The position numbers and the translations under genes are program-made. Below, in pieces: positions 20,258 through 55,708 of a stretch of DNA of 64,000 nucleotides. The notes below the pieces were generated by a model. The model was not told where the DNA came from. It made no database searches and saw nothing but the letters and a program-made list of their open reading frames with translations. The stretch lies in NCBI GenBank assembly GCA_013265495.1, contig MU057887.1, positions 3,871,668 to 3,935,667 of the forward strand, in the 5' to 3' direction. How positions within the stretch are numbered: position 1 is the stretch's first letter; each line of letters begins with the position of its first letter. The DNA comes from Vicugna vicugna (Eukaryota).

Positions 20258-23200
20258 TCAAAGGGCTGTCTCCTTGGAGACCTTGGCCCCCAGCTGCCGG
20301 GGAGGCTTGAAGCTGAGCACCTCTTTATACGTGTCACCTGGGGCCAGGAGAGAGGAGCAGAGACAGTCATGGGAGAGGGGTCCTTCCCTGTCACCCAGCT
20401 CCCACAGTGTACACCAGGCGTGGATGCAGTGACCAAGGCGAAGCACTGGGCCCAGCTCACCGGGTGCCACCCGGACCAGTGGTAAGTCCTGTGAGACCCC
20501 ACTCAGATAGGGGTGGGAAGAGCTCCCAGGCCCAGAGCATAGGCTGTTAGTCACTGACCTAGAGGCCCACCCCCCCAAAACAAGAGTCAGAGATCACTGC
20601 TGGGGCATAGGCACCAGATGGGCTCCTTTGTCCCACACGTGCAAGTCCATCCCAGGCCACGGCCACTCTCAACCCACCCGTGTCCATCCACAGGGACTGT
20701 CCACCTTGATGGGGCTCCTGTAACCCAAACCCACCACCCCTAGCATGCCCTTGGCCCTACCGCCCACCGCAGTGAACCAAGAACATCCTAGGAATGAAAA
20801 CTAATGTGCTCACTCAAGTGGAGCTGCTCAGGGTCCCACCAGGGCACACCCCAGCTTCCGGATCCAGAATTTCTATGAAGGCTCAAATGAGTGAGGAATT
20901 CCCACCAACTACCTGCAACATCCACCTTCCTCGCCTGCGGTCATGTTCCCTGAACTGTGTTCCCAGAGTGAGCCGTCCCACAGGAAGGGTGGGGAGCCTG
21001 CTCTGTCTCCCCTCTGAGTGGTCTGCAAAGGGACATTTCCGCTCAGCCTACCCCAATGCTCCCACACTCACCTGACCAGGGGAGCACCTGTTCTGGGGAC
21101 CACTGGTCCCCACAGGCCCAATGCAGGAAGGACTCTGCCTTCCGAGCCGGTGGTCTGTGTGGTTTGCCCAGCATGTTGACACAGGTCTATTCCCACCCCA
21201 TGGGGTGCCTCCCAGGCCCTTCGTCTAATCCTCACACAGGGGCCAGTCCACACGGAAGGTTTGTGTGAGGGGGCCATTGCTATAAAGATGGCTTTTCCCA
21301 GGGAAATGAGGTAATGGGTTTGCATTTCTGATCAGGGGCTCAGCCACAAGGAGGTCATGTTTCCTTTTTTGGTCCTACATGGTCTGTAGTAAAAGCAAAA
21401 GCTCTTACTACGGTCTGTGGTGGGAACCGCAGAGAAGATCCTGTGGCCCGTGGTTTTCACGTTATCTTTTTTAGCAACGGAAAACATAAACACAAAACAC
21501 AGCACAGATAAAGGCGGAGGCCCTGCTGGAGGCACCAAGAATCCAATGACCCTGAGGAACGTGGTTTGAGAACCACAGTCTTTCCAGCCCCATCCCTACC
21601 CCCATATGCAGGACCATGACCCTGGGTCTGAGGCAGAGCAAGGATGAGACTAGGACAATGGCAGCCATGTGCTATAGCGTCAATGGTGCTAAGCACTGCC
21701 CTTAGGCATCCCTGCACTCCCAGGCAGGCCCTGCAGCCACTGAGGGGAGACACCTGCTGTCCTGGAGTAGACATGGGTGAGGCCCATTCCAGCATGGTGT
21801 GTCAGGACCCAGTAGAAGGAGGCCTGGGACTGGCCAGGTGTCCCTGAGCCCAGCCAGAGGCCGAGCAGATGCTGGCAGCCCTCAGACGGGAGGAGAAGGG
21901 TCTGGGTCTAAGGGGATGGCCAGTGCGAAGCCGGGAGGTGCAGAGCACAAATGGAAGGGGGTCTGAACACCCAGTGGGGCTGGAGGGGTCAGGGATGGGT
22001 AGCAAGAAAGCATGAGGTTCTATGGGCTGCCTGGGGCAGACCTCATCCTGCTGGCAGGATGAGGGGTGTGCAGCTGTCCATGTCAGGGGGCAACCTGAAA
22101 GGGGCAAAGAGAGGCATGAAGATTCCAGAGGTATGAGGAGCGGCCCGGGGGAGTGGGTGCTGAGGGGCTCCACGGTAGCCCAGTCTGGCCTAGTCGGGGC
22201 AGGGAGTGCCGGCAGGCCTGGGGGCCCGGGGAGGCTAAGCGCTCACAGCTGCCCTGAGCTTGCAGCTGCCTCCCCAGTTTCCAGAATTCATCTCCCGTTT
22301 GTGCCAAGTCCTGGCCATGAATGCCCTCCTTTCCATCCTTCAGCTCTAGCCAGAGGTCACCTTGACCAAGAGACTCAGCTGCCCTCTGACCCCCTACTCT
22401 GTTCCTGGGGTTGAGGGACCCAGGATCCTGAGCCCTGCCAGAGCCCCTGACTCACGCTTCCACTCATCCAGTGTGCGGTCCACGTCATCAAAGGACTCAT
22501 CGTACTTCTGGGCCTTGGGCTCGTCCTCCGTGTCCTGCAGGGCCTCAAAGTAGGGGTGGGCCAGCGCCTCGGCTGCCGTCACCCTCCGCTCTGCATCTAG
22601 CACCAGCATTTTCTCCAGGAGGTTCACGGCTGGGGGGTTGGGCAGATCAGGCTGGGCCAAGGGGAGGCTCCTAGGCCCCAGGCCCCTGTCACTGACTGCA
22701 TGCCCACCCAGGCCCACCTACCCAGAGGGCTCGCATTGGTCAGGATGGAGGCAAAATCCTTCTTCTCCAGCTCAGGGAGGCCCTTCATATAATTCTTAGC
22801 CTGTGTGGGAACAAAGGGTGAGGGGCCAGCCCCCAGCCCTCCGGCCCACGCCCAGCTCCCAACTGACCTCATCGCTCTGCAGCCTCTGCACAAACTCAGC
22901 AGGGGGCGTCCCCGTCACCTTCATGATCTCCTTCAGCTGGTCCAGGTCTTTGCCAAGGTCAGGAGTACAAGGTGGGGCCAGAGAGCAGGGCTCACCTACC
23001 CCAGAGCTGGACAATGGGCCCAGCCTGCCCCCCACAGGTGCAGGGCAAACCCCGCCCCTGCCCCAGGTGTAGGATACGATCGTTGCCTTTGAAGAGTGTC
23101 TTCCCTGTGATCATCTCTGCCATGATGCAGCCCGCTGACCAGATGTCCACTGAGACAGAAGCCCCTGCATCAGGGCTATGGGGACTAGGGAGTGGGGCAC

Positions 23201-26200
23201 ACATGGACTGGGGTGGGGGAGATAGGCACAGGAGTGGGGGCAGTGGAGGGGGCATGGACAACAGGAGCCATCTAGCCTGCCACGCCCTGCCCAGCTCCCA
23301 GCCCAGCTCAGCAGCCTCCCCACAGAGCAGCCACCATGGGCTTCCCAGGAAGAAAGAGGGAGGCCGGTGGGCGCAGCCCAGGAGGCTGGTGCCAGTGTAG
23401 GCTGGGGCTCTGGGCAGCTTCTCACCCGTCTGTGTGTAGTGCATCCAATTCAAGATGACCTCGGGTGCCCTGTACCACCGGGTCACCACATATCCAGTCA
23501 TCTCGCTGTCTGCCTGCCTGGCCAAGCCGAAGTCCAGAATCTACAGCCAGAATCAGAAAAGTGGGCCAAAGGGGCCCCCGGGGAGTGGGTGGGCCAGCTT
23601 GTGGTCCAGGGACCCCCAAAGAGGCTGGGCACATCAGGGCCTCCTGCAAACCCTCCCGGAGGACAGTGCACACAGCCCAACCAAACCTGCCTGCCCACAA
23701 CCCTTAGGAACAGGCACCCTGGAGGCTCTCCTCCACCTTCTCCTCTATCCCCTCACCCCAGGAAATGGCCAGCACCTGTGGGGAGGCCACCTCAGCCCTG
23801 CCAGGCTCAGGCCTGGGGAACCAGGCACACTTCTCGCCCTTCACTTCAAGCAGGTCTGGGAGTGTGGCCCATGCCATGCCCATCAGGTGCCTCCCCAGAG
23901 CCCAGCGGCTGCTCAGCCACTGCCCAGATGGCTGGGGTCTGGTCCCTCTGCCTGGGTCTGGGCCAGCCCCCTTCCAGGTCTGAGCGCCAAGGGCGAGGCA
24001 GGCAGATGGCCAGGTGTGAGGTGAACCGAATCCCCAACCCCATACACACCTTCAGCTCACAGTCCTCATTCACTGCCAGGTTGCCAGGCTTCAGGTCCTG
24101 GGGACAGAAGGAAGATGGCTATGCAGGCCTGCCAACCAGGATTCGAGGGCAAGAGCCCAGGCCACACCTGCAGCCCTTCTGGAAGGGTGGAGGTGCCCGG
24201 CCCCCAGGGCTGAGTGCAGGCAAGTACCCCGTCAGGCTCCTCCCAGGTGAGGAAGGAGGCTCCTGAGGTTGAGCCCCTCCCAGGCCCACAGTCTGGGAAG
24301 CTCCCACCACAACCAGGACTCACCCTGTGGATGATGCCAGCATCGTGGATGTACTGTGGGGACAGCAGAGGGGCAGCAGTAGTCAGCTCATGGGGACCTC
24401 AGAGCCCTGGCCCAGTTTAGGGGCTCCACCCCTCCAGCAGCCCCATACATCCCACCTTCAGCCCCTTCAGCATCTGGTAGACAAGGAACTGGATCCGGTC
24501 CTCGCTCAGCTTCTCGTGCTTCATGAGCTTGCCCAGGTCGGTACCCATGAATGGCATCACCAGGTAACTGCGGGGACAGGGCAGGCATCCCCGAGGCAAC
24601 CCGAGTCCACCTCCCACAGTCTCCTTCCACCCCAGCAGCCCCATGATGTAGGGCAGATGGGGACTGTGCTCTGAGGATTCCCCAAGGATGGCAGGCCATG
24701 CTAGGGGCCGGGGCTCCCTGCAGGGGACGGTGGGAGAGGAAGAAAGGAGGGAAGTGGCTGCGGGTGGCGGTGGGGCAGCCGGACATCTGGGTCAGAAGGG
24801 CAGGCTGGGCAGGTGGATGCGGAGAGACAGGGGGAGAGACAGAGGGAGAGAGTCAGCACCCCACCAGGATAGGCCAGGGTGGGCCCTTGATCCCTGCAAG
24901 GTCAAGCAGCAAGGAGCCTGTCCTCCCCAGCCCTTCCCAGGCCCTTGGCCGACACCAGCGTGAGTCCAGGGGTGGCCGCCTGGGCAACCACAGGGCAGGC
25001 TGGCAGGGCAGGACCACCATGGGTCCCCGTCACCCCTCCCCTGCCCGCCAGCAAAGGTCAGCAGCTCCAGTTACAGGCCACACACTTAGTGCCACGGACC
25101 CGGAGTGCGGGGCCTGCTAACAAACACTCAGACCCAAGGCTCCGCACTAGAGGAGCAGGCCCAGGTCCACCCAGCTGGACCAGCCCCGTGAGTCCTTGGG
25201 GTACGTGGCAGGGGGAGGACTGTGGTGTGCTAAGGGGCAGGCAGTGTGCACCCTAACCCCCATCAAGCTGCAAGGAGAGGCCCGCCTCAGGCAGTGCCCC
25301 TGCCAACCCCAAACCTGAGGCTCACACCCAGGGGCCACCCAACACCGCCTGCCCTGCCGAGCCTGCCCCAGGCCGGCGCTTACAAGTCTGTGAAAGCATC
25401 CAGGGTCTCATCGGGCGTGAAGACATCCAGCAACCCAATCACCTGGGGAGGAGGCCAGAGCGCCAGGTGGGCTGGGGGCAGCCAGGGGCACAGGGCCGGG
25501 CACACCCTGGTTCGGGTAGGAAGGCCCCTGCAGCTGTCCTGGCCTCCCCCCGTCCACAGGGCCTGGCTCTGCCCGCTGGCAGCTCAACCCAGCCCTGGCA
25601 CACGTGCCCACAAAGACTATTTTTGGATGGTGACAGCCGGAGTTCTCTGGGGGAGGGGCAGCTCCCAGCCATCCAAGGAGCTCTAGACCCTTGGCCCTTC
25701 CTCCACCTCTTCCTGTCCCCATTGAAGACACAGGACCAGTGTGGTGACAGCCTACTAGGAGAGAGCTGACATCTGGCAGGTCTTTCCAGGGACCGTGCCT
25801 CTGCGAGGGGGGCCCAGGCCGGCAGCACTATGACCAAACCACAGGCAGACCTGGCCCCGCAGACCTCTGGTCAGGGGGGATGTACAGCAGACAATGTGAC
25901 GACTGGCAACCGGGGGTCCGGGTGACAGGGCCTCCGGGAAGCCCAGCAGGCCTGCACTTCAGAGTGGCTAGAGGGGCAGGTGGATGTACTGGCGGGGCAC
26001 ACCTGGCAGAGGCCATGCACGTGGTGGCCTGGAAGGAGGGAGAACACTTAGAGAGTTTGAGGAACACGGGGAGAGAGGCCAAGTGGCTGAGGACCAGGCC
26101 AGGGAGTAGCCAAGGAGAAGCCAAAGGGAACCCGAGAAGGCCCTCGAACACCAGGTGAAGGTTGGCTTTGACCCTAAGAGCCACCGAGGAAGGGCTTAAA

Positions 26201-28438
26201 TAGGCATGATGCTGAATGTGTCCCCTGGCTGCTGTGTGAGGACAAACCAGAGCAAGGTAAGCGTGGACATGAGGTGGAGGGTGAAGGGACAGCTAGGTGA
26301 CCAATGCAGCCACCAGGGCCAGAGACATGGGCAGGGGAGGGGAACAGAGTGGGGCATCCAGAGGGGGGCATGAAGGCAGGTGAGGCCTGGGGCATGAGGA
26401 GGATGTTTTAGCAAGAATCCCAGAGGTTAAGGGGAAGGTCCATGGGGTTGATGGAGACTTCTAAGCTTCTGGTGCAGATGGAGGCCTGGAGTAGGGGGAG
26501 GGGAGGGAGGAGGCCTAAGCTGGGGCAGAGGAGTAGGACCGGGGCAGATGGTAACTCCTCCACCTACAGCTGCGCTCAGCCTCTCAGAGCCCATTTCCTC
26601 CCAGGAGAATGGGTTTATGAAAAGCAGAGTGTCCCAGCTGTGGAGCGGGGCTGGAGGCAGGAGGGTAGGACCCACCAGCACAGTGGGGATGGCCCCAGCA
26701 CAGGTTGGGGAGTAAGCTCCCGGAGGAGGGGGCTGAGGCAGGTCAGGGATGGGAGGCGACTGAACAGAAGAACTAGTGACCTTGCTGGACTGGGGTGGGG
26801 TGGCAGAGAAGCCGTATGAAGCCTCTGGTAGAGGAATCTACCCTCATACGGACAAGTCCTGGGTGTGACCAGGTGTGACCCGGAGGTAGCAAGGCCCAGG
26901 CTGCGCTGGCGTCCACCATGACACCACAAATGGATTTCACCTGGGAAAGGTCAAGGTTGGAAAAATCAGAGAGAATGAAGGACCCATCAGAGGTGGTAAG
27001 AGGGTGGACACTGGACAGGGGCTGAGGGGACAAGCTTCATAGGGGACATGAGGACTCATTCTCCCAGGGGGAGACCAGTGGCTCTGATGACCCAGGAGGT
27101 GCCAGGCCATCTGTTGGGAGCACAATCGGCCATGGTCTGGGTGCCCCGATGAACAGCCCTCAGACTGGGCGACAGTGGCTCATGTGGGAGGGGGAGAGTT
27201 CAGGGCCACAGGAGGACCTACATGGAGGAACGAAGGAAACTCCCCTAGCAGAGAAAAGGGCCCTTTCCGGCAGCCACGTCCCCCAGAGAGGCCAGTGGGC
27301 TGTTCCGTGTCGTGTCCTGTGAGCAGGTCTGGAAACAACATAAGGCCTTTCCCTGGTAGGAGCCAGACCCGCTCCTCCCCCAGTCTGTGAAACCCACCCC
27401 TGTGGATGTGGAGGGTCTGTGTGCCGCCTACTGTGCCCAGTGCCCTCCAGCGCCCTAAATCCCTCCACTGCCAGAGACCCCAAGGCTCTGAGGCTGCCGA
27501 GCTGAGATGCAGACACCCAGTCCATGCCTCCCTCAGTGTTCCCAGGAGCCCCCAGCTCCTAGGGCTGGGGTTCAGGAGGTAGAGGGGCAGAGTAGGGTCA
27601 GGAGTGGGGCTGGAAGGGCTGGAGAAGGGGGACCAGGTGGGCCTGCAGGGGGATGCCCAGAAAGAGGGCTGAGGCTCAGTGCCCCTTCCAGGAAACTCAC
27701 TCCTCCCACCCGAGGTCCTCTCACCTCAGGGTTTGGAGTGGGACCTGGAAGATCCCCTCCGTCTGGGCAAGTGGCCATCCCCTGACCAGGACCTGGGCTG
27801 AGGAGCCAGATGTGGCCCCAGGAAGAAGCCAGAGAACTAAGTCCTCCGCAGGGACTGGCCTAAGAGAGGACTAGCCCCTGGGGAAGCTTCTCTCTCAGGA
27901 AGAGCGGGGGCTCTTCCTCCCTACTCTGACACCCCCCAACCCTGTTCACGGGGGACACAGCCCTGACTGCTCACCTCTGCCCCCATCACACAGGGGCGCA
28001 TTCTAGGGTCTGGGTAGTGGGGCCAGGTCTCCTAGGGCAGGCCTTTTGGGGAGGAGGGCGATAAGCAGAGCAATGGGCGCGGTGTCCCGGAGCCGAGGGC
28101 CCGCGCGACTCACATTCTCGTGGCGCATGTGCTTGAGCAGACGCAGCTCGCGGTAAGCGCGCTTGGCGAACAGCTCGGACTGGAAGGGCCGGTACAGCTT
28201 CTTGATGGCCACCTTGACGCCTGTGCGGCTGTCCACCGCCGAGCTGTGGGGCGCACCGCTTAGCAGGAGGACTGAGCCACCTCGCCCGGCCACCCCGCCC
28301 GGCCTGCGCTCACCATACGGCGCCATAGGCGCCCGAACCGACGGGCTGCAGGTCCTGGTACACGGCGCGCACCTCCCAGGCGGTCTTGGTCACCTCCTGG
28401 CGGTAAAAGCCGCGGCGGGAGGGCGGCTGAGAGCTCAT
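20258..28438 (-). CDS. MAPK12: Mitogen-activated protein kinase 12 (p38-gamma), 12 coding exons, 367 aa
   Basis: Exons: 28314-28438, 28114-28243, 25384-25442, 24456-24567, 24324-24353, 24050-24097, 23426-23540, 23078-23149, 22868-22947, 22722-22800, 22456-22629, 20258-20337 (1104 nt). Contains GSGAYG loop, [39 protein letters not shown] (TGY activation motif) and the C-terminal PDZ-binding KETAL*. Confidence 0.98.
21448..21578. mobile_element. Possible small hAT-Charlie (MER5/MER117-like) MITE in MAPK12 intron 11
   Basis: Imperfect terminal inverted repeats ccgtggttttca / tgagaaccacag (10/12 match) resembling CAGTGGTTCTCA around an A-rich core. Confidence 0.4.
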
Positions 28439-29050
28439 GGTTGGCCCGGCACCGCCCCCGCCGCAGACCCCACGCCTCGAGGACCCGGGACCTGAGATCC
28501 GCCGAACTCCCTGGCGCGCGCCCCGGGCCGCTTCGCGGGCAGAGCCAGCTCCGCGCCGCCCGCCGCCGGGGCGCCCCCGCTCCCGGCTCTTGCCTCCGGG
28601 CTCTCCGAAGCCGCAGACCCCAGCCCTACCCCAGCCCCGGCCCGCGTAGTGCTGGGCCCCTCCCCTACCGGCGGACCAACCGGCCCCCGGGCGGCGCGCA
28701 CGTGACGCCCCCGCCCGTCCTCTGGCCCCTCCGGAAACCCGAGGCGGCCGCCACCGGGGAGGCCGGAGACAGGGGGGAGGGGACGGAGTGGGGAAGGGAG
28801 CTGCGCCCGAAGCTCAGTCCCAGCCTAGACCCGGACGCACCCCCGCCTGCCTCCGCACTCGGGATGAACTCCCCCGACGGAGCCGAGGTGGGGTGTCTGA
28901 ACGGGGCCCCGTGGGGCTCGAGTCTCCTCCTTGCAACCATGCCCCTAGGGCGCTGGCTCATCCTGGGCCGCCTGAGCCTGTCGACTTCCACCCCCAGCCC
29001 CAAATCGCTGTCCACCCGCCCCGACAACTTCCACCCCGCGGCAAACCCCC
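28070..29050 (-). promoter_or_regulatory. CpG island, MAPK12 promoter and exons 1-2
   Basis: Very high CpG density; E-box CACGTG (28699-28704) and multiple GC boxes. Confidence 0.85.
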
Positions 29051-31765: not shown

Positions 31766-34674
<2,909 letters not shown>

Positions 34675-36380
34675 CTGCAAGGCACGCGCGTGACGCTGCA
34701 GGCCTCGCTGCCTGTTGGCACCTGTGTTGCTTGGCGGGCGCCAGCCTGGTCTCCACACACAAGATCTCCAGCAAGGAAGCGCTCTGACAACAGTCACTCA
34801 AAGCCTCTCTTCTCCTCACCGGGGGTCCTGCTCCCCCCTCCACGCACCCCTTCACCCCCAGCCTGCCCAGCCCAGGAACCTGGCCCGCCCCACCTGGGAG
34901 CTCAGGGCAGGATGGGGACTTCTCTTGTCTCATGGCCCAATGGCTCTTGCCAGGGTGGAAATGACAGGGCAGGAGAACAGCCAAGCATGTTCCTTCAGCG
35001 CAGCCCTCCAACTCCCCCATGGGCTGGCGGGGCTGGGAGGCTCCCTGAGGGGTTCCAGGGCCACTGCCAAAGCCCCTGAGTATTCAAAATGTGGAGAGAA
35101 AACTGACCACAGGTGTTTACTGCATCATTTTTCACAGTGAGAAACTGGACATTGGAAAATGGCCAGCAGAGGGTGGCGTCTGGACCCTCAGACCATTTCC
35201 CCTTGCCTGACTCTGCTCCCCAGAGGTCCAGCCCCGCAACCTCCACACCCACCTACTCTTCACAGGAGAAGACTGGCGTTCTCCTCAAACGCAAATGGCC
35301 TGGTCACTCCCACTCTGGGAATGGGGTTTAGGCCCTGCAGAAAGCTTTCCCTCTGCTGCTGCTCATCCCCCCTTCCCTCCCACAGGTCTCCGACCTCCCC
35401 TCTGGGATCCAGCCCCCCTCAAGAGTGAGTGGAGCCTCAGGCCACACCCCAGGCCCATTCCGCCCAGGGAGCATTTCCTGCTGTGGGACCTGGGATGCTC
35501 TGGGGCCCAGACGGTGGTGGAGGAAGCCCCTCCCTCCAGCCCATGACCCGCTGGGGAAGGTCCAAGTCGCTGCTGGGGTGGGAAGCAGGGGAGTGGCCCC
35601 TCATGGGGGTGGGGGATGGGGAGCCAGATCCTTTGGTGTCTGCACAGTCAAACGACCAAGAATTAGCACTGGGTTGCCAGCTTCATCAGAGGAAGGAGGG
35701 CCATCACCTGGATGAGGTCCATGCCCAGCTAAATGCAGTGGGGAGGGACCCGGTCTCTCTTCGGGAGCTCGAACTCCCAGAAAGTGCTTCCAGCAAGGGC
35801 TCTGTCAAATCCCCTAGACCATTCACACATTGTCCCACACCCTTTTCCTGCCCTTTGAGGTCTCAGAGATGAAGACCAAGGCCTGTGGTTGGAATGGCTG
35901 AAATGGTCTACCTGAGGTTCCTGACAGCCAGCCAGTACAGTGTGAGATTTGTGAGATCTGAGGCCCCGGGGACCCCAAACCCCTGTTCCAGTCTCCAGTG
36001 CTGGGCTTTAGGAGGGGGGATAAGTACCACTCTTAACCTTCTGCCAGAGCCTGAAGCAAAGCCCCACCCCCAGGGTCGCTGCCTCCCCACACCCATGACC
36101 TCTGTAGTGAACAGCAGCCACCTGGCCCTTTCTCAGTAAGGATACCACTGGGTTCTGGGGTGGAGCACCTCGCAGCATCCCCACCCACAATCTGCCTCAT
36201 TGTCAACACTGCTAACTGCAACCGAGACTGTCTGCAAGCCCCTCACCCTAAGCCTCTCCAGCCTGCACCCCCTCCAGGTCGCAAAGGCCTCTTGGAACCC
36301 CACCCTCCCTCCTGCTTCCAGACTCCGCAGTCTGTCTGAGCCCCAGGGCTAACTACACGGCTGTGGTCCGAGCTGGCGCG

Positions 36381-36405
36381 CTCTCTCTCTCTCTCTCTCT
36401 CTCTC
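36381..36405. repeat. (CT)n microsatellite
   Basis: About 12 CT units. Confidence 0.9.
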
Positions 36406-36599
36406 CCCCTCTGTTGGGGCAAAAATGGATTGTAGGGGGATGGTACACGCCTCTGGTCAGGCCTGAGCCCCATGCGGAGTCCTAGACCCCCTGGAAAATG
36501 GGGGAGGGGAAGGACCCACGGGGACGCTTGAGGTCATTCTAAGGCAGGGGTCTTGCCCTCCCCCCAGCTGGACTCTTCTTTTTCAAACAAAACTACCCA

Positions 36600-37440
36600 C
36601 CCTAGGGCGGGGGCATCTGCCAGACCCCGGGGCCGCCTGACCCTTGACCCCGGGTACCCCAGATGCAAGCTCAGACATTTAGGAGCCCGGGAGACCTGCC
36701 CTTTGGCCGGCAGTGACGCCGCAGGATTCGGGCCTGGCGGGGACGCTCCGGGTTGGCGGGGACGTTGCGGGTTGGAAGGGCGGGAGGATGACCCCTCCCC
36801 CTGCCGGCGAGAGGCTCTCGTAGGAAAGTTTCCCCCAGACGCCCCTTGCCATTCATTCCTCGGATCCGCGTGAGGCCGGGGGAGGAGGCATGGAGAGCCC
36901 CTCCCCAGGCCGGGAACCCTGCGCCGGGCGGGGAGGGGGCGCGAGCTCAGTCCCCCCACCCCGGCCCCGCCCCGCCCCGCCCCTCCCCATCCAGCGCGTC
37001 CTCGCGCGCCCCCCAGCGGAGCCCGCCTGGCGCGGCGGCATTTCCACGTGCGGAGCGGCCGGAGGCGGGGCGGGGCGGGGCCGGGGAGGGGGTTCCCGCA
37101 GACGAGCGCGCGGCTTCCTGCCCCTCCGAGGCGGCGGCCGAGCGGAAACCAGCCTTCCCCGGGCGGTGCGGGCAAGGGGGGAGGCCAGGGAACGACTTAC
37201 CGCCCCTCCCGCTTCTACCTCCCGGGGTCCAGGCACTTCCCCAGTATCCGCCGCGTCTGTCCCCCGCGCGGCGCGACGCAGACCAGGCAGCCACCGCCTG
37301 TCAGGACTACGCGCCCCGCACCCTCTCGCAACGGCTCCCGCGCCTGCACCTCACCGCTCCCCACCTCCAGTCCCTGCACACGCCCTCCGCCTGTTCCGGA
37401 CCCGCGTTTAACCCCCCTTCGGCCTGCTCGGGTTCGTGCA
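36600..37440 (-). promoter_or_regulatory. CpG island, MAPK11 promoter region
   Basis: CpG-dense block about 2-2.7 kb upstream of MAPK11 exon 2, with tandem GC boxes on both strands (36964-36983, 37064-37080) and E-box CACGTG (37045-37050). Confidence 0.8.
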
Positions 37441-42303: not shown

Positions 42304-45300
42304 TCAGAGGTCGGTGACCTTGTTCTCAAGTGCAGCTGCAATCTGCTGGAGGCGGAAGGCCAGCTGCATCTTCTGGGCGGTGGGATCCTCCTCCAGGGCG
42401 TTGATGATCTTGGGGGCAGGGGGCATCGTGTCAAACCACGGCCGGGGAAGGGGCTGCCTGAGCACTGCCATCCCCGGAGGACCAGACCCCTACCTCATCG
42501 TAGTACTTCTGCGTGTACTGGCAGAGCTGGTGCAGGGCCACGAGGGTGTTCAGGGAGTCCGTGTGTGCCTGGGAGGATGGGGAGGGCTATGTGACCCCAC
42601 GGGCAGGAGGCCGTTCCCCACGGGAGCAGGGAGCTGTGACAGTGGCACACTATCAGAGCACTCAGGCACACAGGGTGCCGTGGACAGACAGACTGCCATC
42701 CACGTAGACACACGGCAAACAGGGCTGGTCCAGAGCAGCTCACAACCTCCCCACCACCCAACCCAGCACACCTGGTCAGACACAGGTGCCAGCCCCTCTG
42801 GTCCCAGCTCTGTTCTCTCTCCTGTAGGCACAGCCTCACCCGGCCCCGCAGTGTGGTCTCCTGCCCCACTCAGAGGAGGCCTTCAGGGCCGGGTGGAGGG
42901 TAACCCCAGGGGTTAGTATGCCCTGTGCCCCCTTACCCGGGAAATCTCTGCCAAGTGTGTGTTCATGTCCTGGTCGCTGACCTGCACCATCTGTCTGATC
43001 CCCTTGTAGTAGCTGTGGAGGAGGGGGAGTTACAAGGAGGGGAGGGTCAGTGGTTCCCAGAAGCAGGACCTGAAGCTACCCCTGGGGCCCTCCTTCTGAT
43101 CACAGCCTGCACCACCCCGGTCCCCTCTGGGTGGGGGTTGAGGGTGGGCAGCCAGGGTCTGGCCAGCGAGGTAGGGGTCACTCACTCCTCCACCATCTTC
43201 TTGTAGGTGGAGATCTCCTTGGCGTAGAGTAGCTTGTTGCTGGGAGAGTCCTGTGGGGGTTGGAGCCAAGTGATGCCTAGGCCAAGATGGCTGGTGCCCC
43301 TACCCTCGGGCCCTCACCTGCTCAGGACACCGAGAGGAAGGGGGGGTGCAAGGGGCAGGGTCCAACTGGGTAGGTGCCCCAGCCCGGCCATAGACCTGAG
43401 AGGAACTCCTTGTGCTTTTGTCATTTTGTAATCTGTAGTAAAACTCACTTTTTCTTTCCCACGGGAGGGGAAGGAGAACAGGGTCCGAGGCTGCCAGATG
43501 GGCCACTCCCCAGGGGACCTCCCAAGCTTTGCCTCCCATAGCCCAGGTACCCCACACCCGCCTCCCTTGTTCCAGCCCCAAATGTGCAGATCCACATCCC
43601 AAACCTCCTGGCATGTCCCAAACTGCCTTCCTCACCCCCATCACAACCATGTTCCCTGCCCCCTCCCGACACTTCCCAGTCCAGCCCTGTTCCCACCACC
43701 CCGTCTAAAGCGCGCACTCACGCGGCTCAGCTTGTGCTCTGTGCGTGTGCAGGCGTCCATGAAGGTCTGCGCGATGACTGACAGGGAGGCATCCACCACC
43801 TCGTGGACATGGACGTCAAAGATGAAATGGGGGTTCTTGAGGATGTTCACCCAGAACCGGAGGGGTAAACTGAGGCAGGACGACAGGACAACAGGGAGTG
43901 AGGGGCCGCTGAGACCCTGGAGCAGGGCGGGCAGTGGGACGGAGCCCCCACCTGTTGGTCTTCCAGATGTGGATGGTGTCCTCATCCTTGATGTCATGCT
44001 TCTCCGCCTGCTCGTCCAAGAAGTCGAAGAAATACTTGACAGCGGGCGGCACGGCGAGCCCAGGCGCTAGCACGCTCTGGAAGAAGTTGTCCACGAACTG
44101 CTGCAGCGTGCCCTGTGGGGCAGGAAGGGGGCTCAGCACGCAGGCCGGTGCCTCCCGGGGCTGCCGCCCACACCCTCCACACCCACCTTGACCGAAAGCA
44201 GGCGCGTCAGGTAGATCTCGGTGATGGCCTTGGTGCGTTCCTTCTCCTTCATGCTGCCACGCTTGGACTTGCCTTCATCCACCTCGTCCGCTGGCCGCAC
44301 GAGGTGCCACACTCGGTTCTCCTCCTCCAGGAGCGCATGGCCTGTGGGGAGCGGGCGGTGGAGGATGAGGGCTGGAGCCCAGGTCCGGGGTCCTGTGCTA
44401 GGCTCAGCAGCTCCCCCCAGATGGCAACCAGGTGGACACTGGCTCACAATGGCCTCCAGAAGCCAGAAAAGTAGGGACAAGAAGAAGGGACTCACGCTCC
44501 CCAGGGAGGTCCTGCTGGCTGTCCTCAGGTTGCTGGGAGACCCCCACCTTGGACAGGATGAGCGTGGCTCCATCCCGGACCTGGGGAACACAGTCATGAG
44601 GGCAGGCCTCCTGCCGCGATCTCAGCAGGAAACCCGGCCCCCCACGCCCGCACTCACGTTGTAGTGCATCAGCGTGTTGATGCGCCTCCAGCGGCCCTCC
44701 CGCTGAGAGGTCAGGTCCAGGTCTGACAGGATCTGGGCTGTGGACCCAGGACGCCACTCTGTGGGAGGACATGGCCCAGCTCCGGGAACCCGGCCACAGA
44801 CTGTCCCACCCGGACTCCCTCTTGCTGACCTCCCACTCAACCCGGCCGACCAGGGTTCCAAAGGCAGCACCCTTCCAGGGCACAGGCACACAGGAACTGC
44901 TCACCGAGGACCACACTGTCAGCCTTGGGCCAGCGGGAGCAAGGCTGCGTGCGGTACACCTGGTCGATGATCTTCTCCTTGACCTGGGAGATGGTGTCAC
45001 AGTTGAGGACCTTGACGGGGATGGGATCGACCCCTTCATCCTGGATGATCACGTTCACTGTCTGCCAGGGGTGACAATGACAGGCCAGTTGGGGACGGCC
45101 CCTTGCCCTCACTTGCCACAGACGCAGGAGCAGCCTTGGGCCTCCTCTGATGGCTACACCCTCAGGTTGGCAAGGCAGGGGAGGGGGTATAGGTCCTGAG
45201 CCCTCCCAGCACCCAGGGCCTGACCCTGTGCTGCCTGGCCTGGCTCAGCAGGACAGATGGCAGAGGAACAGCTCAGGGGACTGCTCGCTCCCAGGTATCA

Positions 45301-48300
45301 CATGATACACAGTTATCACGGGAGCGCACGCACAGACCACATGGCCCAGACAGCCCGGCCTCCCCCGGAACCCAGTGCTCTGGTGTCTCGTGGCCCCGCC
45401 CTGTGCCCAGTGAGCATGCGCTCACCACCACACACTTGGTGTGCCCAGGTCCCACACATGCTGCAGCAGGCCAGGCACCCAGGAGGCAGATGGCTTGGGG
45501 TCATGACACTTACAGCCTCTCTAAGGACCAAGCCTGCTGAGGTGCCAGGACCCGGACCCCCCTGGACACGACTGGGCCCAGCACAAGGAAATATGTTCTC
45601 ATGCAAGTCCATGAAGGAGGTGAAACGAGCACAGCTTCTGGTCGGGAGGCTGGCCTGGAGCCTGGCCCTGAGGTCTCCCAGCAGCCCACCTGGCCCCAGG
45701 CGCTCACCAGGGGTGCGTACTCCACGTCGTCCCCTAGCAGCCCCGTGTCATTGAGGGTGTACTTGGCTTTCTTCTGCACGGCGTCCACTGGCCCCTTCTC
45801 CACCTGATGCTTGATGGCCTTGAAGAGCTTGTAAAGCGGCTCGCCAGCGCTGTCCTGGAGCAACGCAGGGTAGCGGAGCCTTGGACGGGACTGACCCATG
45901 CCAGGGCAGGGAGCAAACCCATCCAGGTGGACACAGGGGGTGGACTTTGTGGGCTACAGTGCCACCTCACCCCACCCCACCCCACAGCTAGGCCTGTGAA
46001 ACCCACCTTGAGATACTGGTACAGGCAGATAGACATCCAGTTAGACAGCATCCTCTCCACCACCGTCTCAGACCTGGAGGTGCAGACGCCTTGAACTGAG
46101 CAACCCTTCAGTGCCCCTAGGACCAGCCTGCTCTTCCAAGTACCCAGACCACTTCCATTTGCAGCCCAGCCTCCACCCAGGCCCTGGGCCTCCACTGGGA
46201 TGTACACTACAGCCTGCAGTGACCAAACTCCCAGGTCCCCGAGGGTGGCCATTTCATCCTTCTCCCCATCCTACAGAGGGCCGATGACAATGGAGCTAGT
46301 GACCAGCAAGGACCACCTGCTAGAAGGGACGCTACTCCTGCCTCCCCCCTCCCCACTCACTTGCACTGGCGGCACCAGCCCGCAAACCAGGTACACAGAC
46401 AAGCCCGTGTCACCTCACTGCCACCCCCGCGGCCTCTGCCCTTCCCCACACACCTGCGCAGCATCAGCTTAGGGTTCTTGGCCACCACGTACTGCTCCAT
46501 GAGCTCCAGGAAGAGCGTGCGCATGATGTCCGTGTAGTACTCCAGCTTCCCGTGCAGAGCCACAGTCAGCAGCGACGCAAAGTAGACCTTGGCACGGGCT
46601 GAGAACTCACGCTGGTTCTCCAGGGTGTGGATGAACTACAGGGGCGCGGGTCGGAGCCCATCAGGCACAGAGGGCAGCGTCCCCAAGCTGCGAGCTCCGC
46701 TCAGCTCTGCTTGCCCCAGACACCTCGCCCTCTTGTAGCCCTGCTCCGCGATCCCCGCCCCGCCATGGAGCCCCGCCCCCCGTGACATCACAGTCCCGCC
46801 CCGCTCACGTTGATGAGGAAGCATTTGCTGTTGAGCAGATTGGAGAACTGGTAGAGCGCCTGCTCCACGACCTGCCGCCGTGACTCAGGGATGTCCAGCT
46901 TGCCCGTGATCATCACATCCTTGTCGCCGTCCTTCGAGGGCAGGAAGAAGACGCGGTCGGTGTAGGTCTTGTAGTCCAGCACGGGGATGCCCGCCTCGTG
47001 CACGTCGTTCGTCTGGTCCTCCATCTCGATCATCAGGTCTGGGGGGAGGCCGGGGTGAGGCGTCTGGGCCCCGCCCTCCTCCGCCCCTCCCGGCCCTCCT
47101 CCAGCGCTCCAGCCCGAGCCCACTGGACCCCCACCCGTGAACTCCTTCTTGCAGCGGTCTCGCACGCTCTCCTCCAAGCCCTCCAGCTGGGACTTGATCT
47201 TCTCGTACTCGCGCTCCGCCTGCTGGCTCTTCCTCCTGGGGGCACAGGGAAGCTCCTGGGACCTGGCCTGGGTTGTGCCCGCTGGTGGGTGTGGCCAGAG
47301 GGGCTGAGGCTACGGGGGAGGGGCTCACCAGTAGCAGTAGACAGACACAGCGATGACAGCCACCATGGGCACGATGACCAGTGGCAGGATGAGGCTGAGT
47401 GGCACATCACTCACACGCGTGTCATACTCCACGCGGCCCAGCACCCACTCCCTGGAGCCAAACTTCACCTGCATTGAGAGGTGGACTGAGCAAGGGCAGA
47501 TGTGTGGCTAGGACCAGGAAAACCCAGAGCCACCACTAACACACCTCCAATGCTCCCCACGCCCTCCTCCCTGGCCGGGCTCAGCCCTGGCGCCTCCCCT
47601 ACCCGACACGCACAATGAACTCAGGCAGGTTGTGGGTCGTGTCCCGCTTCTGCCGCCGCTTGGGGGGAGGCTGCACCTCCGGGGGCTCACAGTACAGATC
47701 CGTCTCTGTCAGCGTCTTCATGATGCAGCGCTCGGCACCCACGAAGGCCTCAGCCTCGTGAAGAGTCATTGCCTTGTTCAGATTAGTGCCCTGTGGGAGA
47801 GGGGGGTCACAGTGACCAGGGGCAGGCAGGGCTGCCTGGACGAGCTCAGCCCAGACCCCGAGCTGCTCCCCTACACATGCCCGCTCAGGGCCTGACCCCG
47901 GGGGGCTGCGCTGGTCCTCACCCGGGCGTGGATGAGCTTGTTGACCTGCTTCTTGACGCCCCCAGTGAAGTTCTCGAAGGTGGGGTCGGCGACGTACTCA
48001 AAGGCACCAGCCTCGGTCCTGAGCAGGGCGCGGTGCCCATCCATCTGAACAAGTGCTGTGAGGTTGTAGGCCTCGGGCTCCTCGGGGACGGCCGGGGACA
48101 GGAACACAACCCTGGAGTCGTTGTAGAGCACATACTCCGTGCCCACCACCTAGGAGCCGAGGCAGGGCGGTGAGGCTCCTGGCACAGGCCGCACCCCTCT
48201 GACACGCTCCCCGCAGCCAGCACCGGGACTGACCGTCACGGGCTGCAGGGGCCCGGCCTCCCGCCGCCGCTGCCAGGACGGCAGGGGCTCGGCTATGACC

Positions 48301-51300
48301 ACCATGGCGAACCGCTGGATCAGGCTGAAGCCTTGCCCGGTGACGTTGATGCTCCGGCCACCACTGGGGGACAGGGAGGGGCACCTGAGTGGGCATGACT
48401 GGGCCAAGGAGGTGCCCAGCCAGCTTCAGAGCAGGTGCCCTGCAAGGCGCTGTCTCATCAGCTCCCCAACTCAACTCTGGCCACGTGGTGGCTTGCAGAG
48501 CACGGGGCATGGAGTCCCCAACCCCACCCTGCTTTGGGGCACACATGCAGGTCTGTGTGAGCCCAGCCTGCTGCAGGGTTTGGATGTGCTCAGAGCTGGT
48601 GACAGGACAGCCGCCGTGGACTGTCAGAAGCTGAACAAAGGGGTTTCTAGGGGGCAGTTGATTTGGGGGTACACTGGGGACTTTTGGAGGCCTCCTGCCA
48701 CCCAGACCAGCTGCACCACATTTTCTTTCACAAGCCCAGTGGGCAAAGGGTGCCCCAGAAGTAGCTGGATGGGGCGGGTGTAGCAGGCAGTGTGGGAGTG
48801 GGGGCGCCTGCCGGGGGGGAGGGAGCGGCCACACCTGACAAAGCTCCGCAGCGGCTCGAAGGCCCGCAGCACGGGGTTCTCACGGTAGGTGAAGGTGACG
48901 CCAGCGCTTTCCACCTCGGAGCCCCCGTAGGAAATCTTCAGGGACAGCTCTCCCGGGACCAGCTGGGGGCCGGTGACACACTGGAGCTGCACCCCAAACT
49001 GCGTCCTGTGGGTGGGGATTGCCAGTCAACATCTACCCAACCCTGGGACCAACCAGTCCCAGGCCGGGGGTCTGTTCAGGACAGAGGAGCATTTGAGGTG
49101 TGTGCCATGGCCAGAGGGCCCCCACCCGGTCCCCAGGACCAGGGCAGATGAGGGATTCACCAGCCTGTGGGCGACACCCACACTTTACAAGGGACGTCGT
49201 TGAGGGTCACCCGCACATCTTCCTCAGAGCCTGTGTCCAGATGGGTACCGTTGATGGTCAGAGTGGTGCCGCCCGCCTGTGGCCCCTGCTTTGGCTCCAC
49301 ACTGAGGGGCTGGGGCTGCTAGAAGGGCGACAGGTGTGTTTGGCTTAGGGTAGGGGCAGCAGGGCTGCTGCCCTTCCTCCCTCCCAGGCCTTGACAGGCA
49401 ACAAATGTGGTCAGAAGGAGGCAGGGGCACAGCCTGGCCATCCCACAAGTCAGCCTGGGGCCCTCCAAGGCCAGATCCCATCCACATCTCCCACCAACCT
49501 GTGAGGCCCACCTGGGCCCCCAGACCAGGTACTTACCTGGTAGGTGAACTGGACGTGGGGAGGCGAGTGGCCGAGCTTCCCGCTGACGTCCACTTCGATG
49601 CCCCCTGTGCAGGGCTCCTTTGCAGCCTCAATGGCACACACAATCCTAGGCAGGGGGCGGGCAAGCGGCTCACTCTAGGGCCTCCCCAGGCCCTAGCGGA
49701 CTGGCACATCAGCAGGTGTGCAAACCCTGGGCACCCATACACCTGGACCACGTCCTTCCTCTCCACCCCCGGTCACCTGGCCCCCCCGGGGTACAGACTG
49801 GCCTAGCCACTGGGGCCTGGCTGTGGGCTGTCCACTCACCGGGTGGACACAGAGTACCGTTCCGGCTCAAAGGCGCAGGTGCGGCCAGCCACAGTGACCC
49901 TCTTCACGTCGTCCGCTCTGACCCCCAAATTTGACCCAAGGATAGTGATGCGGATGCCCCCGCCCAGCGGGCCGGTCTCAGGCTGGATCTGAAATTGGCA
50001 GAGCCCAGCTGACCGGGGGCCTGGTGGGCTGGGATGTGCGGGTAGGCTGGAGCCCTGGAGTCCCTCCCCGCAGGGGCAGGGAGGGCGGCTCACCCTGGTG
50101 ATGACGGGCGGTGGGCACTCGGAGGTGACGCTGCTGCACAGGGCCTCATACACGCACCTGCCCTGCCCGCCACACCACACACACTTGTAGGCAGGGTCGG
50201 CGGCCAGGCACAGGCTGCAGTCGCTGCGGCCGAAGGAGCAGTTGTACAGCGTGACTGTCGGGGGAGAAGCTGGCAGTCGGCAGGGCCGCCCTGCTCCCCA
50301 CACCCCACAGCCCGGCTGCCTCCCTACCCACCTTGGAGCTTGCTGTCGATATTCTTGCCGTGGGACTTGACATACAGATGCAGGGGCAGTGTCTCGTTGG
50401 CGTCATAGGACAGCTGGGGGACACATGGGGACATGCTGCACTCCCTGCTCCCACCCAACCCCCAGAGGGTGACCACCACACCCACAATGGCCAGTGCTGT
50501 CCTCTAACGGCCAAGGGGCAGCGAGGGGAGGACTCCAGGAAGCTGGAAGCTGGACTCTCAGAGCTACAAAGGATTATGTTGATTCGAGGGAGATGGGAGG
50601 ACACAGGGCTGCTCTGAGGTCACACCTGCTTGGCTGGCTGCCACTGCTTCCTCGGCAGGGCGGCATGGTGAGCCTCCCCCTGGCCCGACCCTTGGGGTCC
50701 AGCAGCCTGGCCTGCCCACCCTGAAAGCCATACCTTTGGGGTCTGAAAGTAGAAGGTTCCTGGCTCCTGAATGATGACTGGCTCCTCAAACTTGAGCAGG
50801 TCACTGCCTACATGCAGGGAGGAGCCCTGCCAGACAGGCTGGTCAGGATATCCTGGACAGGCCAGCCCGTCCCACATGCCCACCCCAGGCCCCACACAGC
50901 TCCCAGGTCAGCTCAGGCACTCTCATCCCAGCTGACTGCTCGGCCACTCCCGGACAGGCCACAGCATGGTCAACCCCAAGCTCACAGCCCTGCTCTGTCC
51001 CCTCCTAATCTCTCTGTCTCCTTTCTGCCTATGTTCTCGAGGCCCGTCCGAATGCCCTAGTGCCCTCCCAGACCTCCCTGACTCCTCCATGTGCTGGGTC
51101 CTGAGCCAGGGGAAGCCTGGGTGGGGCCCCAGCATGCAGCTCCTGGTTGCAGGAGGATGCTCTGAACTAGCCCCACAGCTCTCCATCAGCCAGGCAGCAC
51201 GGCCCCTGCTGGGACCCCCATGCCTGCCTGCACCGGTCAGTCCCTGTCCCCAGGCTGGGGTCCCACAGACTGCCCACCTTCACTGTGTCCAGGTTCTTGC

Positions 51301-54300
51301 CCTCAAATGTCACGTCCGTCTCGTGGTTCATGGGGATGACCAGTGGGCTGGGGTTCAGGAAGTGGGGACAGTTGTCCTCCTGGAGAGGGTGGGGCAAGGC
51401 TGGTCAGGCGCTGCCTGGCCGTGGCTGAGCAGTGTGGCTCCCGCACGGCCCGCACGGCACCCCCTCACCATGTGGGCACTGACGACGCTGTCCTCGGGGC
51501 TGGGCGAGGCCTTCTGACACTCGTGGTGGTGCAGGTCCCACTGGCAGGTCCAGCGGCTGCTGGTGCAGGAGATGCACCTGGAGGAGAGGGTGGTGAGGAG
51601 CGAGGTGGGAGGTCAGGAAGATGTTGCCGCGTCTGAAGAGCAGCTGGATGTTCACAGCCACGTAATCTGTAGACAGCAGGTGGGGACAGTGTCAGGCAGG
51701 GCCACAGGGTGCAGGGTAAGGCTGGCACCACAGGGACAGGAAGGCGGGAATCAGGCCTCCTCTGGCCACAACTGCTCTTTCCACTGGAGCTACCAATGGG
51801 CTCTCGAGCAGAGAACCAGAAGCCACGTATGCAGACCACAGTGTGAGTGGGGCTCTGCGGGCTGCCCACCAACTGGCACTTGGGCTCAGCCTGGCCAGCA
51901 ACGGATTTCAGATCTCAGCTCAGGCGTCGGTGCCGGGATGGGTTCATGTCGCTCCCCAGGGTCTGTGCTGTCGGGCCCTTTCTGTCCCTTGGCGTCTGGG
52001 GCAGAGCACCTGCCAGGTCTCTGCTACGTCACTGCATGGCCCCCGCCTTCACCAGTGCACCATCCTCCTCTGGCACCAAATGCTCAGCGCCTGCCCTGGC
52101 CTCTGGGCACTGCCCCACCTGTCTCAAGCTGGGACCCAGGTCGTGCTAAGAATGCATAACAGAAGCAGGATCAAAGGGCTCAGGAGTCAGCCTCAGGATG
52201 GGGGCCAGGAACTGACCGTGTGCACCCTACACAGCGCAGGGAGCCCAGGATCGGAGCTGGGGGTGGGCCTCCACCCTGACCACCCGTCCTCCGCCCCAGC
52301 CTGCACCCTGCGGACCAGGCTTGATAAGTGGGTGCATGTGGCCCCAGGTGAAGAGAAAGGAAGTGCCCCTCCAGTAGCCAAAGGACAGGGGCCTCACCCT
52401 GGCCAGGCGGCGTGCTAGGAATGCTGCTTGGGGACTTGCAGACCACGGCGCCCCCCTCCACACGGGCAGGATGAGGCGGAGAGTCTCCGAAGAGGCAGAG
52501 CAGCTCATCCTCCTTGCTCAGGGCCGGGAGGGGACTGACGGTCAGCTGCACCTGGGGAAGGGCCATGTGGCTCACACCAGGAGCCCTCCGCCCAGCCTTG
52601 GGGTGCAGGGGAACCTCCTGCCCCACCCAGAGCCCCTGCCATCTGGCTGTTCTCCTGCAGCACCCCTCCTCCCTAGAGAAGCCTCTAGAACCTGACTCCA
52701 TTTCATTTGAAACAGGTCCCTATGTGGTCACCGGAGCAACTCCTGGACTAGGGTCTGGGTCTGCTCTGGATACTCAGGAGACCCCAGGTCAAAGGGGCCA
52801 GGGGACCCAAAAAGGATGGGGTCCCTGTCCCCCAGCTTAGCACCCAGAGCCCAAGCCAGGAGCAAGGAGGTGGACTGTGGGGGTCTCCCACTGCCCCAAC
52901 AGCCCCTGGCCAACAGCAGCCCTGCCTCTACCCGGCCCCGCCTCACCACACACCTCCCCCTGGGCCGGGCGACTCATATTCTGTGGCTGGGCCCCGGTGA
53001 TGGCCACGCAGAACTCATCCCGGCTCCACAGCCAGTGGCCACTCTCTTCAGCCCGTGGGCACTCAGCTCTCCTGGTGCACCTGCGGGAACGGGGGGCAGC
53101 TTCAGTCCTGGTACCTGTCAGCCCCCAGGATGGGGCTGCACCCCCTAGATCCCTGGGTGCTCACCGTCCCTCGACGACACACCAGCCGCAGTAGGGGTCC
53201 TGTGAGCTGCGGCACTGTGTGCAGGTCGGAAAGCTCAGACACTCCTGCACAGGGAGCCGAAACACCTGAGGGCACCAGGGCAGTGAGTGGGACCAAGACC
53301 GCCAGAGGTGACAGGCCAGCAGCCCAAAGAACATCCCTCAGACCTCAGACTTCTCTGGGATCACCAGACTCACCCCACCTTTATTCCCAAGCCTTAACAG
53401 CCTCGACACCAACTCAAGGCTCACTAGCAAGGGCTCCAAGCAGCAGCTTCCAGCCAGGCTTTTGTGGCCCCAGCAGAAAGGCTGGGCCTGACCCCGGATC
53501 TGACGGTGCAGGATCCCAGGGGACCAGTGGAGTCCTTGGCCGTGATGCCCCTGGTGCCAGCATAGGCCCTTTTGAAGGGTTCTTACACCTGTCCCCCAAT
53601 AAGCAGCAGGGCTTAACCCATGTTCCCCACTATCTGCACTTCCAGAAGCAGCTTGGGGTCCCTCGATGCCCTGTTCACCTTTGGGGGGAGGCACACTCAG
53701 AGCACTGACCCACCCTCCAAGCAGGATGGGGCCAAGGCAGAGACACCGAATAGACAGAAACTGTTTCAAAGACAAGACAGGTGCTCGAGAGACACAGGCT
53801 GGAGACACTGCCAGGACCCAACGAGAAGAGGCTTGGCCCCTTCCCATCCTGCTCTGCACCCTTCCAGGCCTCTCACAAAGGCCTGGACCTCCTCCAGGCC
53901 CACAGGCCCACCTTGTCCTGGGTCATGGCATACAGACTGGCCAGGTCCGCAGCCAGCACCAGGTCCTGCTTGATTCTCTTGTTGATCTCCACAGGGACAG
54001 AGCCATACTCCGTGGAGCTACCGTCTGGAGCCAGATACACCTGTGGACGCGAAGGCAGGTGTGTGGTGAGGGCGGAGACAGCCTCTCCAGGAGCCACCCT
54101 GCCCCAGCCCCGAGCCTCACCTTGAGGATCTGGCCGTCTGAGGTGCCCAGGAAGGCAATGGTGTGGCCGTTCTCAGCAGTCACTGTCACGGCTGTCAGGT
54201 TCAGGCCTCCACGCTGTAGCACGGCTGTGGCTGTGAGTCCATCGTGGCTGCCCAGGGGGTAGGGCAGGTGCTCCGAGCCACACTGGAAGCTCTCGCTGGC

Positions 54301-55708
54301 GCCCTATGGACCATGGTGTCAACGGTGGGCATAGAACCTCGCCCCAAGGCCTCTCCCCCAATGTCTCCCAGCACTTGTGGACCCACACACGTCCCCAAGA
54401 ACCAGCTCATGCAGGCAGGGTCCCCACCCGCACGCTCACTGCTCCAAGCCCCCAGTGCCCAGTGGGAGCAACACCCAGGAGAAGTGGTAGCCACGTGACC
54501 ACTCACGCTGACCTGACCACAGTGACACCCCATGCATGGGCCCCCACCAGGAGGCGGAACGTGGACAGGCAGCAACAGGCAGACCCACATGTGTGTGGTC
54601 CGAGCCCATGGGAGGGTGTGCTGAGGCCACGTACCGGCCCGTGGCCGCCACACTGGATCTCGCCGTGGAAGGGCTTGTAGAAGGTGTCTCGGCTTGCCTC
54701 CCGGGTACCCGTGTAGCAGGCGTTGCGGTTGGCCTCCATCTTGTTGTGGACCTGGTCCAGCGGGAACAGGCAGAGGCCTGCGCGGGGCCCCCTGCTGCTC
54801 CGGCCATCCTTGCTGAAGACGGTGTAGAGCACCCTGCTGGCGTCTGGCCCGGCCACGGAGGCCGCCAGACAGGTGCCGAAGGCAGGGGCCTGGGTGTGGC
54901 CAGGGTCCAGGCAGTGCAGGTCCACCTCCACGTAGGAGTAGTAGAATGGGTCGTGCTTGCACATGCGCGCCAGCAGCGTGCGGTTCCGGGGCGGGTGCTT
55001 GTCTTGCTGGTTGAAGACAAAGAAGACGTAGGGGCCATCCTCGAAGGCAGCCACAAACTGCTGTGTGTTGGTGGACAGGTAGCCGGCCTTGTAGGTGGCA
55101 TGGTCTGTGTAGGCCTCGAAGGCCTCCCTGCCATCAGCGCGGTCCAGCAGCCGGGTGCTCACGACGATGCCGTTGTCCTGGGGCCCATTGCCTTTGCCCA
55201 CAAACAGCACCCGCTCGCCGCCTGGGTCCGCGGTGCTCACCAGCCCCACTGTGGCCACACTCTCATCATTGCTGGCCACGAAGGACTTCTCACCGCTGCC
55301 ATCCTCGTAGAAGAGACGCGTGGACACGTTGCTCAGGGCACGCAGGGCGCAAATGCCCTTGAAGAGGCTGCCGCACTCGACAAGGCGATTCTTGGGCGGG
55401 TCGAGCAGCAGCAGCTGATTGACGTTGTCAGTCAGCACGGCCTCGTGGCACTGGCTCGCCTCGATGGGCGGCGTACACTTCTTGTTGTCCAGGGCCGGGC
55501 CTGTGGCCGCCTGCTGCTCCAGCTGCAGGTCCGCACTCAGCTGGTAGAGCGCGTTCACTGCCCCCACATACACCACGCCTGACGCCTCATCCACGACCAG
55601 GTGGTTCAGCTCTGTCTCGCTGCGGAAGAAGTCCAGCTTGTGGGACCGCAGGCTCACACTCGTGCCCACCAGGCCCAAGAGGGCCAGGGCCCAGAGCTGC
55701 AGTGCCAT
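42304..55708 (-). CDS. PLXNB2: Plexin-B2 (semaphorin-4 receptor), 35 coding exons; coding exon 7 truncated as assembled
   Basis: Exons: 54635-55708, 54121-54303, 53912-54040, 53165-53265, 52954-53080, 52398-52551, [~51604-51666 truncated], 51469-51577, 51278-51379, 50734-50826, 50332-50413, 50094-50254, 49840-49988, 49537-49645, 49182-49318, 48835-49005, 48234-48363, 47922-48149, 47614-47790, 47329-47468, 47135-47235, 46809-47038, 46454-46635, 46007-46073, 45708-45854, 44905-45061, 44658-44758, 44496-44580, 44187-44341, 43952-44112, 43722-43869, 43186-43250, 42937-43012, 42494-42568, 42304-42408. Signal peptide [13 protein letters not shown], Sema/PSI/IPT domains, furin site RQKR, TM segment [25 protein letters not shown] motif [14 protein letters not shown]-terminal PDZ ligand VTDL*. 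Confidence 0.97.

Follow-up and report, generated by a model that had tools for sequence, protein, structure and literature searches.

A 99-base gap in exon 7 of vicuña PLXNB2 is probably an error of the assembly

PLXNB2 in the window and its damaged exon 7

The window, a stretch of 64,000 nucleotides from a Vicugna vicugna assembly, carries PLXNB2 on its minus strand. The gene is the plexin-B2 orthologue: its best matches are plexin-B2 along the full length, and its first coding exon is 99% identical to camelid plexin-B2. As references we used two alpaca proteins of 1841 aa each, P0126 (XP_072829878.1) and P0132 (XP_015101887.1). The window differs from them by four and two substitutions, respectively, and only residues 612-628 are absent. 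Wild Bactrian camel plexin-B2 has 15 differences from P0126, which places the gene of the window with the South American camelids. The Sema, PSI, TIG/IPT and RasGAP cytoplasmic domains were mapped on the alpaca protein. The features that matter here are as follows.

42304..55708, minus strand: PLXNB2 coding span of 35 exons, with GT-AG joins at every junction but 7-8 and exon 7 alone damaged
52398..52551, minus strand: coding exon 6, which exits in phase 1 (splice joins reconstructed against the alpaca protein)
51603..51666, minus strand: what remains of coding exon 7, its 5′ 64 nt out of a normal 115 nt (codons 590-610 plus bases 1 and 2 of the Leu611 codon)
51602..51603, no strand assigned: junction lacking 99 bases, of which 51 nt belong to exon 7 (residues 612-628) and 48 nt to the intron, including the donor
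51578..51602, minus strand: remnant of intron 7, the last 25 nt of a 73-nt intron, with the pyrimidine tract and the AG acceptor
51469..51577, minus strand: coding exon 8, which requires phase 2
51303..51305, minus strand: TGA in exon 9 met by the read-through frame, after residue 680

The 35 coding exons correspond to those of alpaca plexin-B2 (P0126, P0132); missing from the window are residues 612-628 and the donor of exon 7. A scripted search for GT-AG or GC-AG joins that reproduce the alpaca protein solved 32 of the 34 junctions and failed at 25-26 and 7-8. The former is a normal GT-AG join, where the script failed from substitutions only; at junction 7-8 the search found no GT-AG or GC-AG join that gives the alpaca protein. 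Outside exon 7, neither the coding exons nor their splice sites carry a further lesion, which agrees with the view of the initial annotation that the other 34 exons are intact; they have GT-AG joins and few substitutions relative to the alpaca proteins. In exon 26 (44906-45061, minus strand), V1472I and A1479P are common to P0132 and P0133, not P0126; 64 of 70 mammalian plexin-B2 proteins have Ala1479, and the pair is probably a segregating alpaca-type haplotype. P0133, also an alpaca model, skips exon 10 in frame.

Exon 7 opens at 51666 with ag|AT in phase 1 and runs for 64 nt down to 51603, where it passes straight into the intron remnant, whose acceptor AG occupies 51579-51578; exon 8 begins at 51577 in phase 2. 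The sequence at 51666-51578 is as first described, an exon fused to the tail of the next intron with its 3′ half and donor missing. The joint is clean, with no N, and GC content around it is 56-74%. No shared letters are listed at its two sides, and no repeat pair spanning the junction was found in the window.

Five camelid DNA or unlabelled sequencing runs were tried, and in two of them, X1 and X8, which come from different organisms and different studies, contigs bridge the site. No contig was placed from X5 or X13, nor from X1 in a second comparison; since contigs pass a filter, this is evidence neither way. Compared over 50700-52600, both hold 99 letters between 51602 and 51603 that are absent from the window, and are otherwise only 3 and 5 letters off it in 1901; contig depth across the site is 14 in X1 and 23 in X8. 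The junction of the window, without the 99 bases, was seen in none of the runs compared, of which only these two bridge the site. The frame of the 1841-residue protein is recovered if exon 7 is 115 nt long, so that 51 of the 99 bases belong to the exon and 48 to the intron, a division made by arithmetic. With the 25 nt that remain, the intact intron 7 is then 73 nt long, close to the smallest other introns of the gene (74-77 nt). The comparison with other camelids, proposed at the outset as a check, thus bears out the estimate that roughly 50 nt of exon and most of a short intron are gone, in that 48 of 73 intron nucleotides are lost. The missing piece was not found elsewhere in the source assembly, where an exact pattern gave zero hits and a protein search weak matches only (E 0.11 or worse). 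Judged from the protein it starts with GT, and it might end in AG, as an excised intron would.

Two further lines from the runs were set aside. The X10 contig stops at 51585, still 17 bases away from the junction; a carrier contig should reach 51602 or slightly beyond, so this contig is no sign of the deletion. The share of window words found in the runs reached at most 0.94, while a fully covered source run is expected to give about 0.98 or more, so that reads of the source animal itself appear to be absent from these runs. These shares were unable to tell carriers from non-carriers: for X1 the expected values are 0.934 or 0.950 and 0.94 was seen, and for X8 they are 0.901 or 0.917 and 0.92 was seen.

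Coding consequence of the gap

Reading through the 89 nt as written leads to the TGA at 51305-51303, in exon 9 of 35, after 680 residues of which 611 are native and 69 foreign. Skipping exon 7, skipping exons 7 and 8, and using either of the cryptic GT donors all end in exon 9 too, in agreement with the initial claim that both read-through and exon 7 skipping shift the frame. The smallest in-frame skip tested costs 126 aa, and none of the GT-AG routes tested restores the frame. GC donors need a good consensus, which the two GC sites in the exon 7 remnant do not have; although their use would keep the frame, with proteins of 1810 and 1811 aa, neither resembles a donor, and we rejected them as a splice rescue. 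If real, the allele is predicted to be null through nonsense-mediated decay of the message, and any protein made from it would be without the membrane anchor and the GAP domain. The open reading frame at 51404-51661 is a by-product of the junction and not a gene; its garbled peptide is what the junction encodes, as had been noted. A protein search with it gave no candidate among proteins of 46-149 aa, and a pattern scan of metagenome contigs gave no match.

The lost residues include the end of the TIG_plexin domain, which Pfam places at 527-615 in the alpaca protein. The next PSI match begins at C629, at model position 8, and from these two bounds we infer that C617 is the first cysteine of that PSI domain. 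The initial annotation had placed a PSI-domain cysteine in the lost part, which would hold for C617 by this reasoning, although the PSI match itself starts only at C629. It had also given the lost residues as about QYPFYDC; YPFYDC is right, but the preceding camelid residue is Leu rather than Gln, and the first two bases of its codon are still present. Of 134 plexin-B2 proteins, 123 retain F614, Y615 and C617; the other 11 are P0134, a truncated model from a primate and nine models from birds or reptiles that are unaligned here. Residues 612-628 are kept in 14 of the 15 camelid proteins of the cluster, and all alpaca models are intact. For the plexin-B2 ectodomain we found no solved structure, only structures of cytoplasmic parts.

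Origin of the gap

We consider the 99-base gap to be an error of this assembly and not a lesion in the animal, with a probability of about 0.8. Both bridging contigs carry the 99 bases and the junction of the window appears in no run compared; the retention of the segment in nearly all camelid proteins and the intact state of the rest of the gene also speak for an error. Older assemblies often contain false losses of exons and false frameshifts, which touch about 26-60% of genes (PMC9516821). The cases described there likewise combine a partly missing exon, a disrupted splice junction, a frameshift and a GC-rich gene that is intact in other assemblies; those errors were proved by reads or in the same individuals, however, whereas the present case rests on contigs of other animals and has no N at the site.

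Intron 7 also disturbs other camelid gene models. P0134 (Camelus bactrianus, marked LOW QUALITY) has intron sequence directly after Leu611, the same residue at which the window breaks, and P0128 (dromedary) has 11 intron-coded residues inserted at intron 7; the tails of both odd peptides match the frame of the remnant at 51578..51602. The trouble in P0134 and P0128 may stem from the assemblies behind them or from the gene models only. Two dromedary proteins, P0001 and P0128, have Ala at residue 628, after which P0128 continues from an acceptor of different phase; this would fit an assembly with an irregularity of one base at the donor of exon 7.

Back-translation of the odd P0134 peptide can yield three perfect copies of a C-rich unit of 7 nt. 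No control stretch (0/1500) reached 21 nt and 119/1500 reached three copies of any unit, where the stricter 21-nt measure of repeat length was picked after seeing the copy-count result. On the other strand the back-translated repeat has three runs of five G. Judging from this Camelus peptide, the missing part of the intron probably holds a C5/G5 tandem repeat. A canonical G-quadruplex (G4) requires four G-runs, and the putative repeat shows three. At G4 motifs, Illumina depth is reduced to 0.81-fold (PMC10519405). If the vicuña intron has the same C-rich repeat, reads would have thinned out or degraded there, the two flanks would then have been joined without Ns, and the animal would make a normal plexin-B2 of 1841 residues. 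With no shared letters and no repeat pair at the junction, a mis-join or a wrongly closed gap fits better than a collapsed repeat. Of the assembly collapse suggested by the initial annotation, the artefact is the likeliest reading, but a collapse in the strict sense is less probable.

Possible signs of error are also seen in the neighbouring TUBGCP6, where the consensus sequence has private changes at three near-invariant residues (G422F, L423F and R130L). Codons 422-423, Phe-Phe on the minus strand about 150 bases left of window base 1, correspond to Gly and Leu in 118 of 120 homologues, the other two being unaligned; codon 130 (window 11521-11523, minus strand) encodes Leu, and Arg is found in 119 of 120 homologues. 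The clustered changes at 422-423, in one conserved spot, are likely a consensus error, and the private changes together count for an assembly error at PLXNB2 as well. Against it, the assembly is locally good, with two N gaps in 144 kb around the locus and no exon-size gap found in TUBGCP6. The X1 and X8 contigs cross the site, which is thus not always hard to assemble, and no flanking repeat explains a collapse. The repeat itself comes from a Camelus peptide and has three G-runs only, and two informative individuals are too few to rule out a rare allele. On balance the indirect evidence leans towards an error rather than a private allele.

The stronger of the alternatives, though unlikely in our estimate, is a rare real germline deletion of 99 bp, heterozygous in the sequenced animal and picked up by the haploid assembly as a null allele. 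The clean junction without N and the few gaps in the surrounding assembly are compatible with it, but it is in neither of the bridging runs. Real end-joining deletions often show microhomology, and none is listed at this joint, which speaks for an error. Human PLXNB2 is under strong constraint (pLI 0.99, o/e 0.19; PMC11228227), and it is only from these two values that null alleles are taken to be rare. The initial annotation had argued from the severity of Plxnb2 loss in mouse, and this argument was overstated. Plxnb2-null mice die on inbred backgrounds, yet about 30% are viable and fertile on the outbred CD1 background, heterozygotes look normal, human carriers are generally unaffected, and one person had two frameshift alleles (PMC11228227). 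A healthy animal could therefore carry a heterozygous null allele.

Deletions induced by G-rich motifs can extend to a far end some 50-300 bp off (PMC4654259), and a G-rich motif is probably inside the missing piece, which offers a possible route to a real deletion. In that system, G-quadruplex deletions are repaired by polymerase theta, and the present gap is alike in size (50-300 bp) and in the probable location of G-runs within the missing piece. The system consists of helicase-deficient worms, however, in which the nearer of the two junctions is found 3′ of the G-motif (PMC4654259). The putative G-runs here number three; on the G-rich strand, about 10 nt separate them from the 5′ junction and about 68 nt from the 3′ junction, and no microhomology is listed. 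By our own reading of the convention, applied to the inferred repeat, the polarity appears opposite to that of the worm model. We hold it to be improbable that South American camelids carry a segregating null allele of PLXNB2 that arose by deletion across a G-rich repeat in the intron.

It is very improbable that PLXNB2 is lost in homozygous or lineage-fixed form, or that alternative splicing rescues the lesion: null mice that live on an outbred background and the person with two frameshift alleles (PMC11228227) make loss conceivable, and the two GC sites would allow in-frame products, but two near-identical genomes (X1 and X8) and all alpaca protein models are intact, frame and splice sites show no decay elsewhere in the gene, and the other splice routes either end in exon 9 or remove at least 126 aa. 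A lineage-fixed unitary pseudogene was rejected, as the lesion is not common to other individuals (2/2 bridging runs and 14/15 proteins intact).

Either way the finding is ordinary. If the gap is an assembly error, it is a warning only, against inferring gene loss from a single lesion when a constrained gene of this assembly is affected; intron 7 also seems troublesome for several gene models of camelids. A real deletion would be a mutation of an ordinary kind, which gives a null allele of a gene linked in 2024 to a recessive human syndrome. That syndrome comprises amelogenesis imperfecta, hearing loss and intellectual disability, and among its alleles are an exon-spanning deletion and frameshifts for which nonsense-mediated decay is predicted (PMC11228227); the allele of the window would, if real, be of that kind, though it is known here from assembled sequence alone. 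In that case, homozygous animals would offer a natural model of the human syndrome of enamel and hearing in a large animal, and carriers in this livestock group could be identified by PCR across exons 7-8. We found no report of a camelid PLXNB2 allele in the literature searched, which left out most subscription journals.

RNA coverage and other features of the window

Two RNA runs, X15 and X17, cover 50734-51306 only, which includes the joint of exons 9 and 10 and none of exons 7-8. Each has the spliced joint and also a contig with the whole 451-nt intron (window 50799-51306), which represents either a retained intron, pre-mRNA or DNA. The intron-retaining contig is off the window at 22 of 508 letters and, by this divergence, probably comes from a more distant camelid.

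The only N gap of the window, 710 N at 1357-2066, interrupts what we take to be a LINE-1 ORF2-like fragment (684-2123) in a TUBGCP6 intron. The ORF lists also show exons of two p38-type MAP kinase genes on the minus strand, at about 22900-28900 and 31800-37300, presumably MAPK12 and MAPK11 by synteny.
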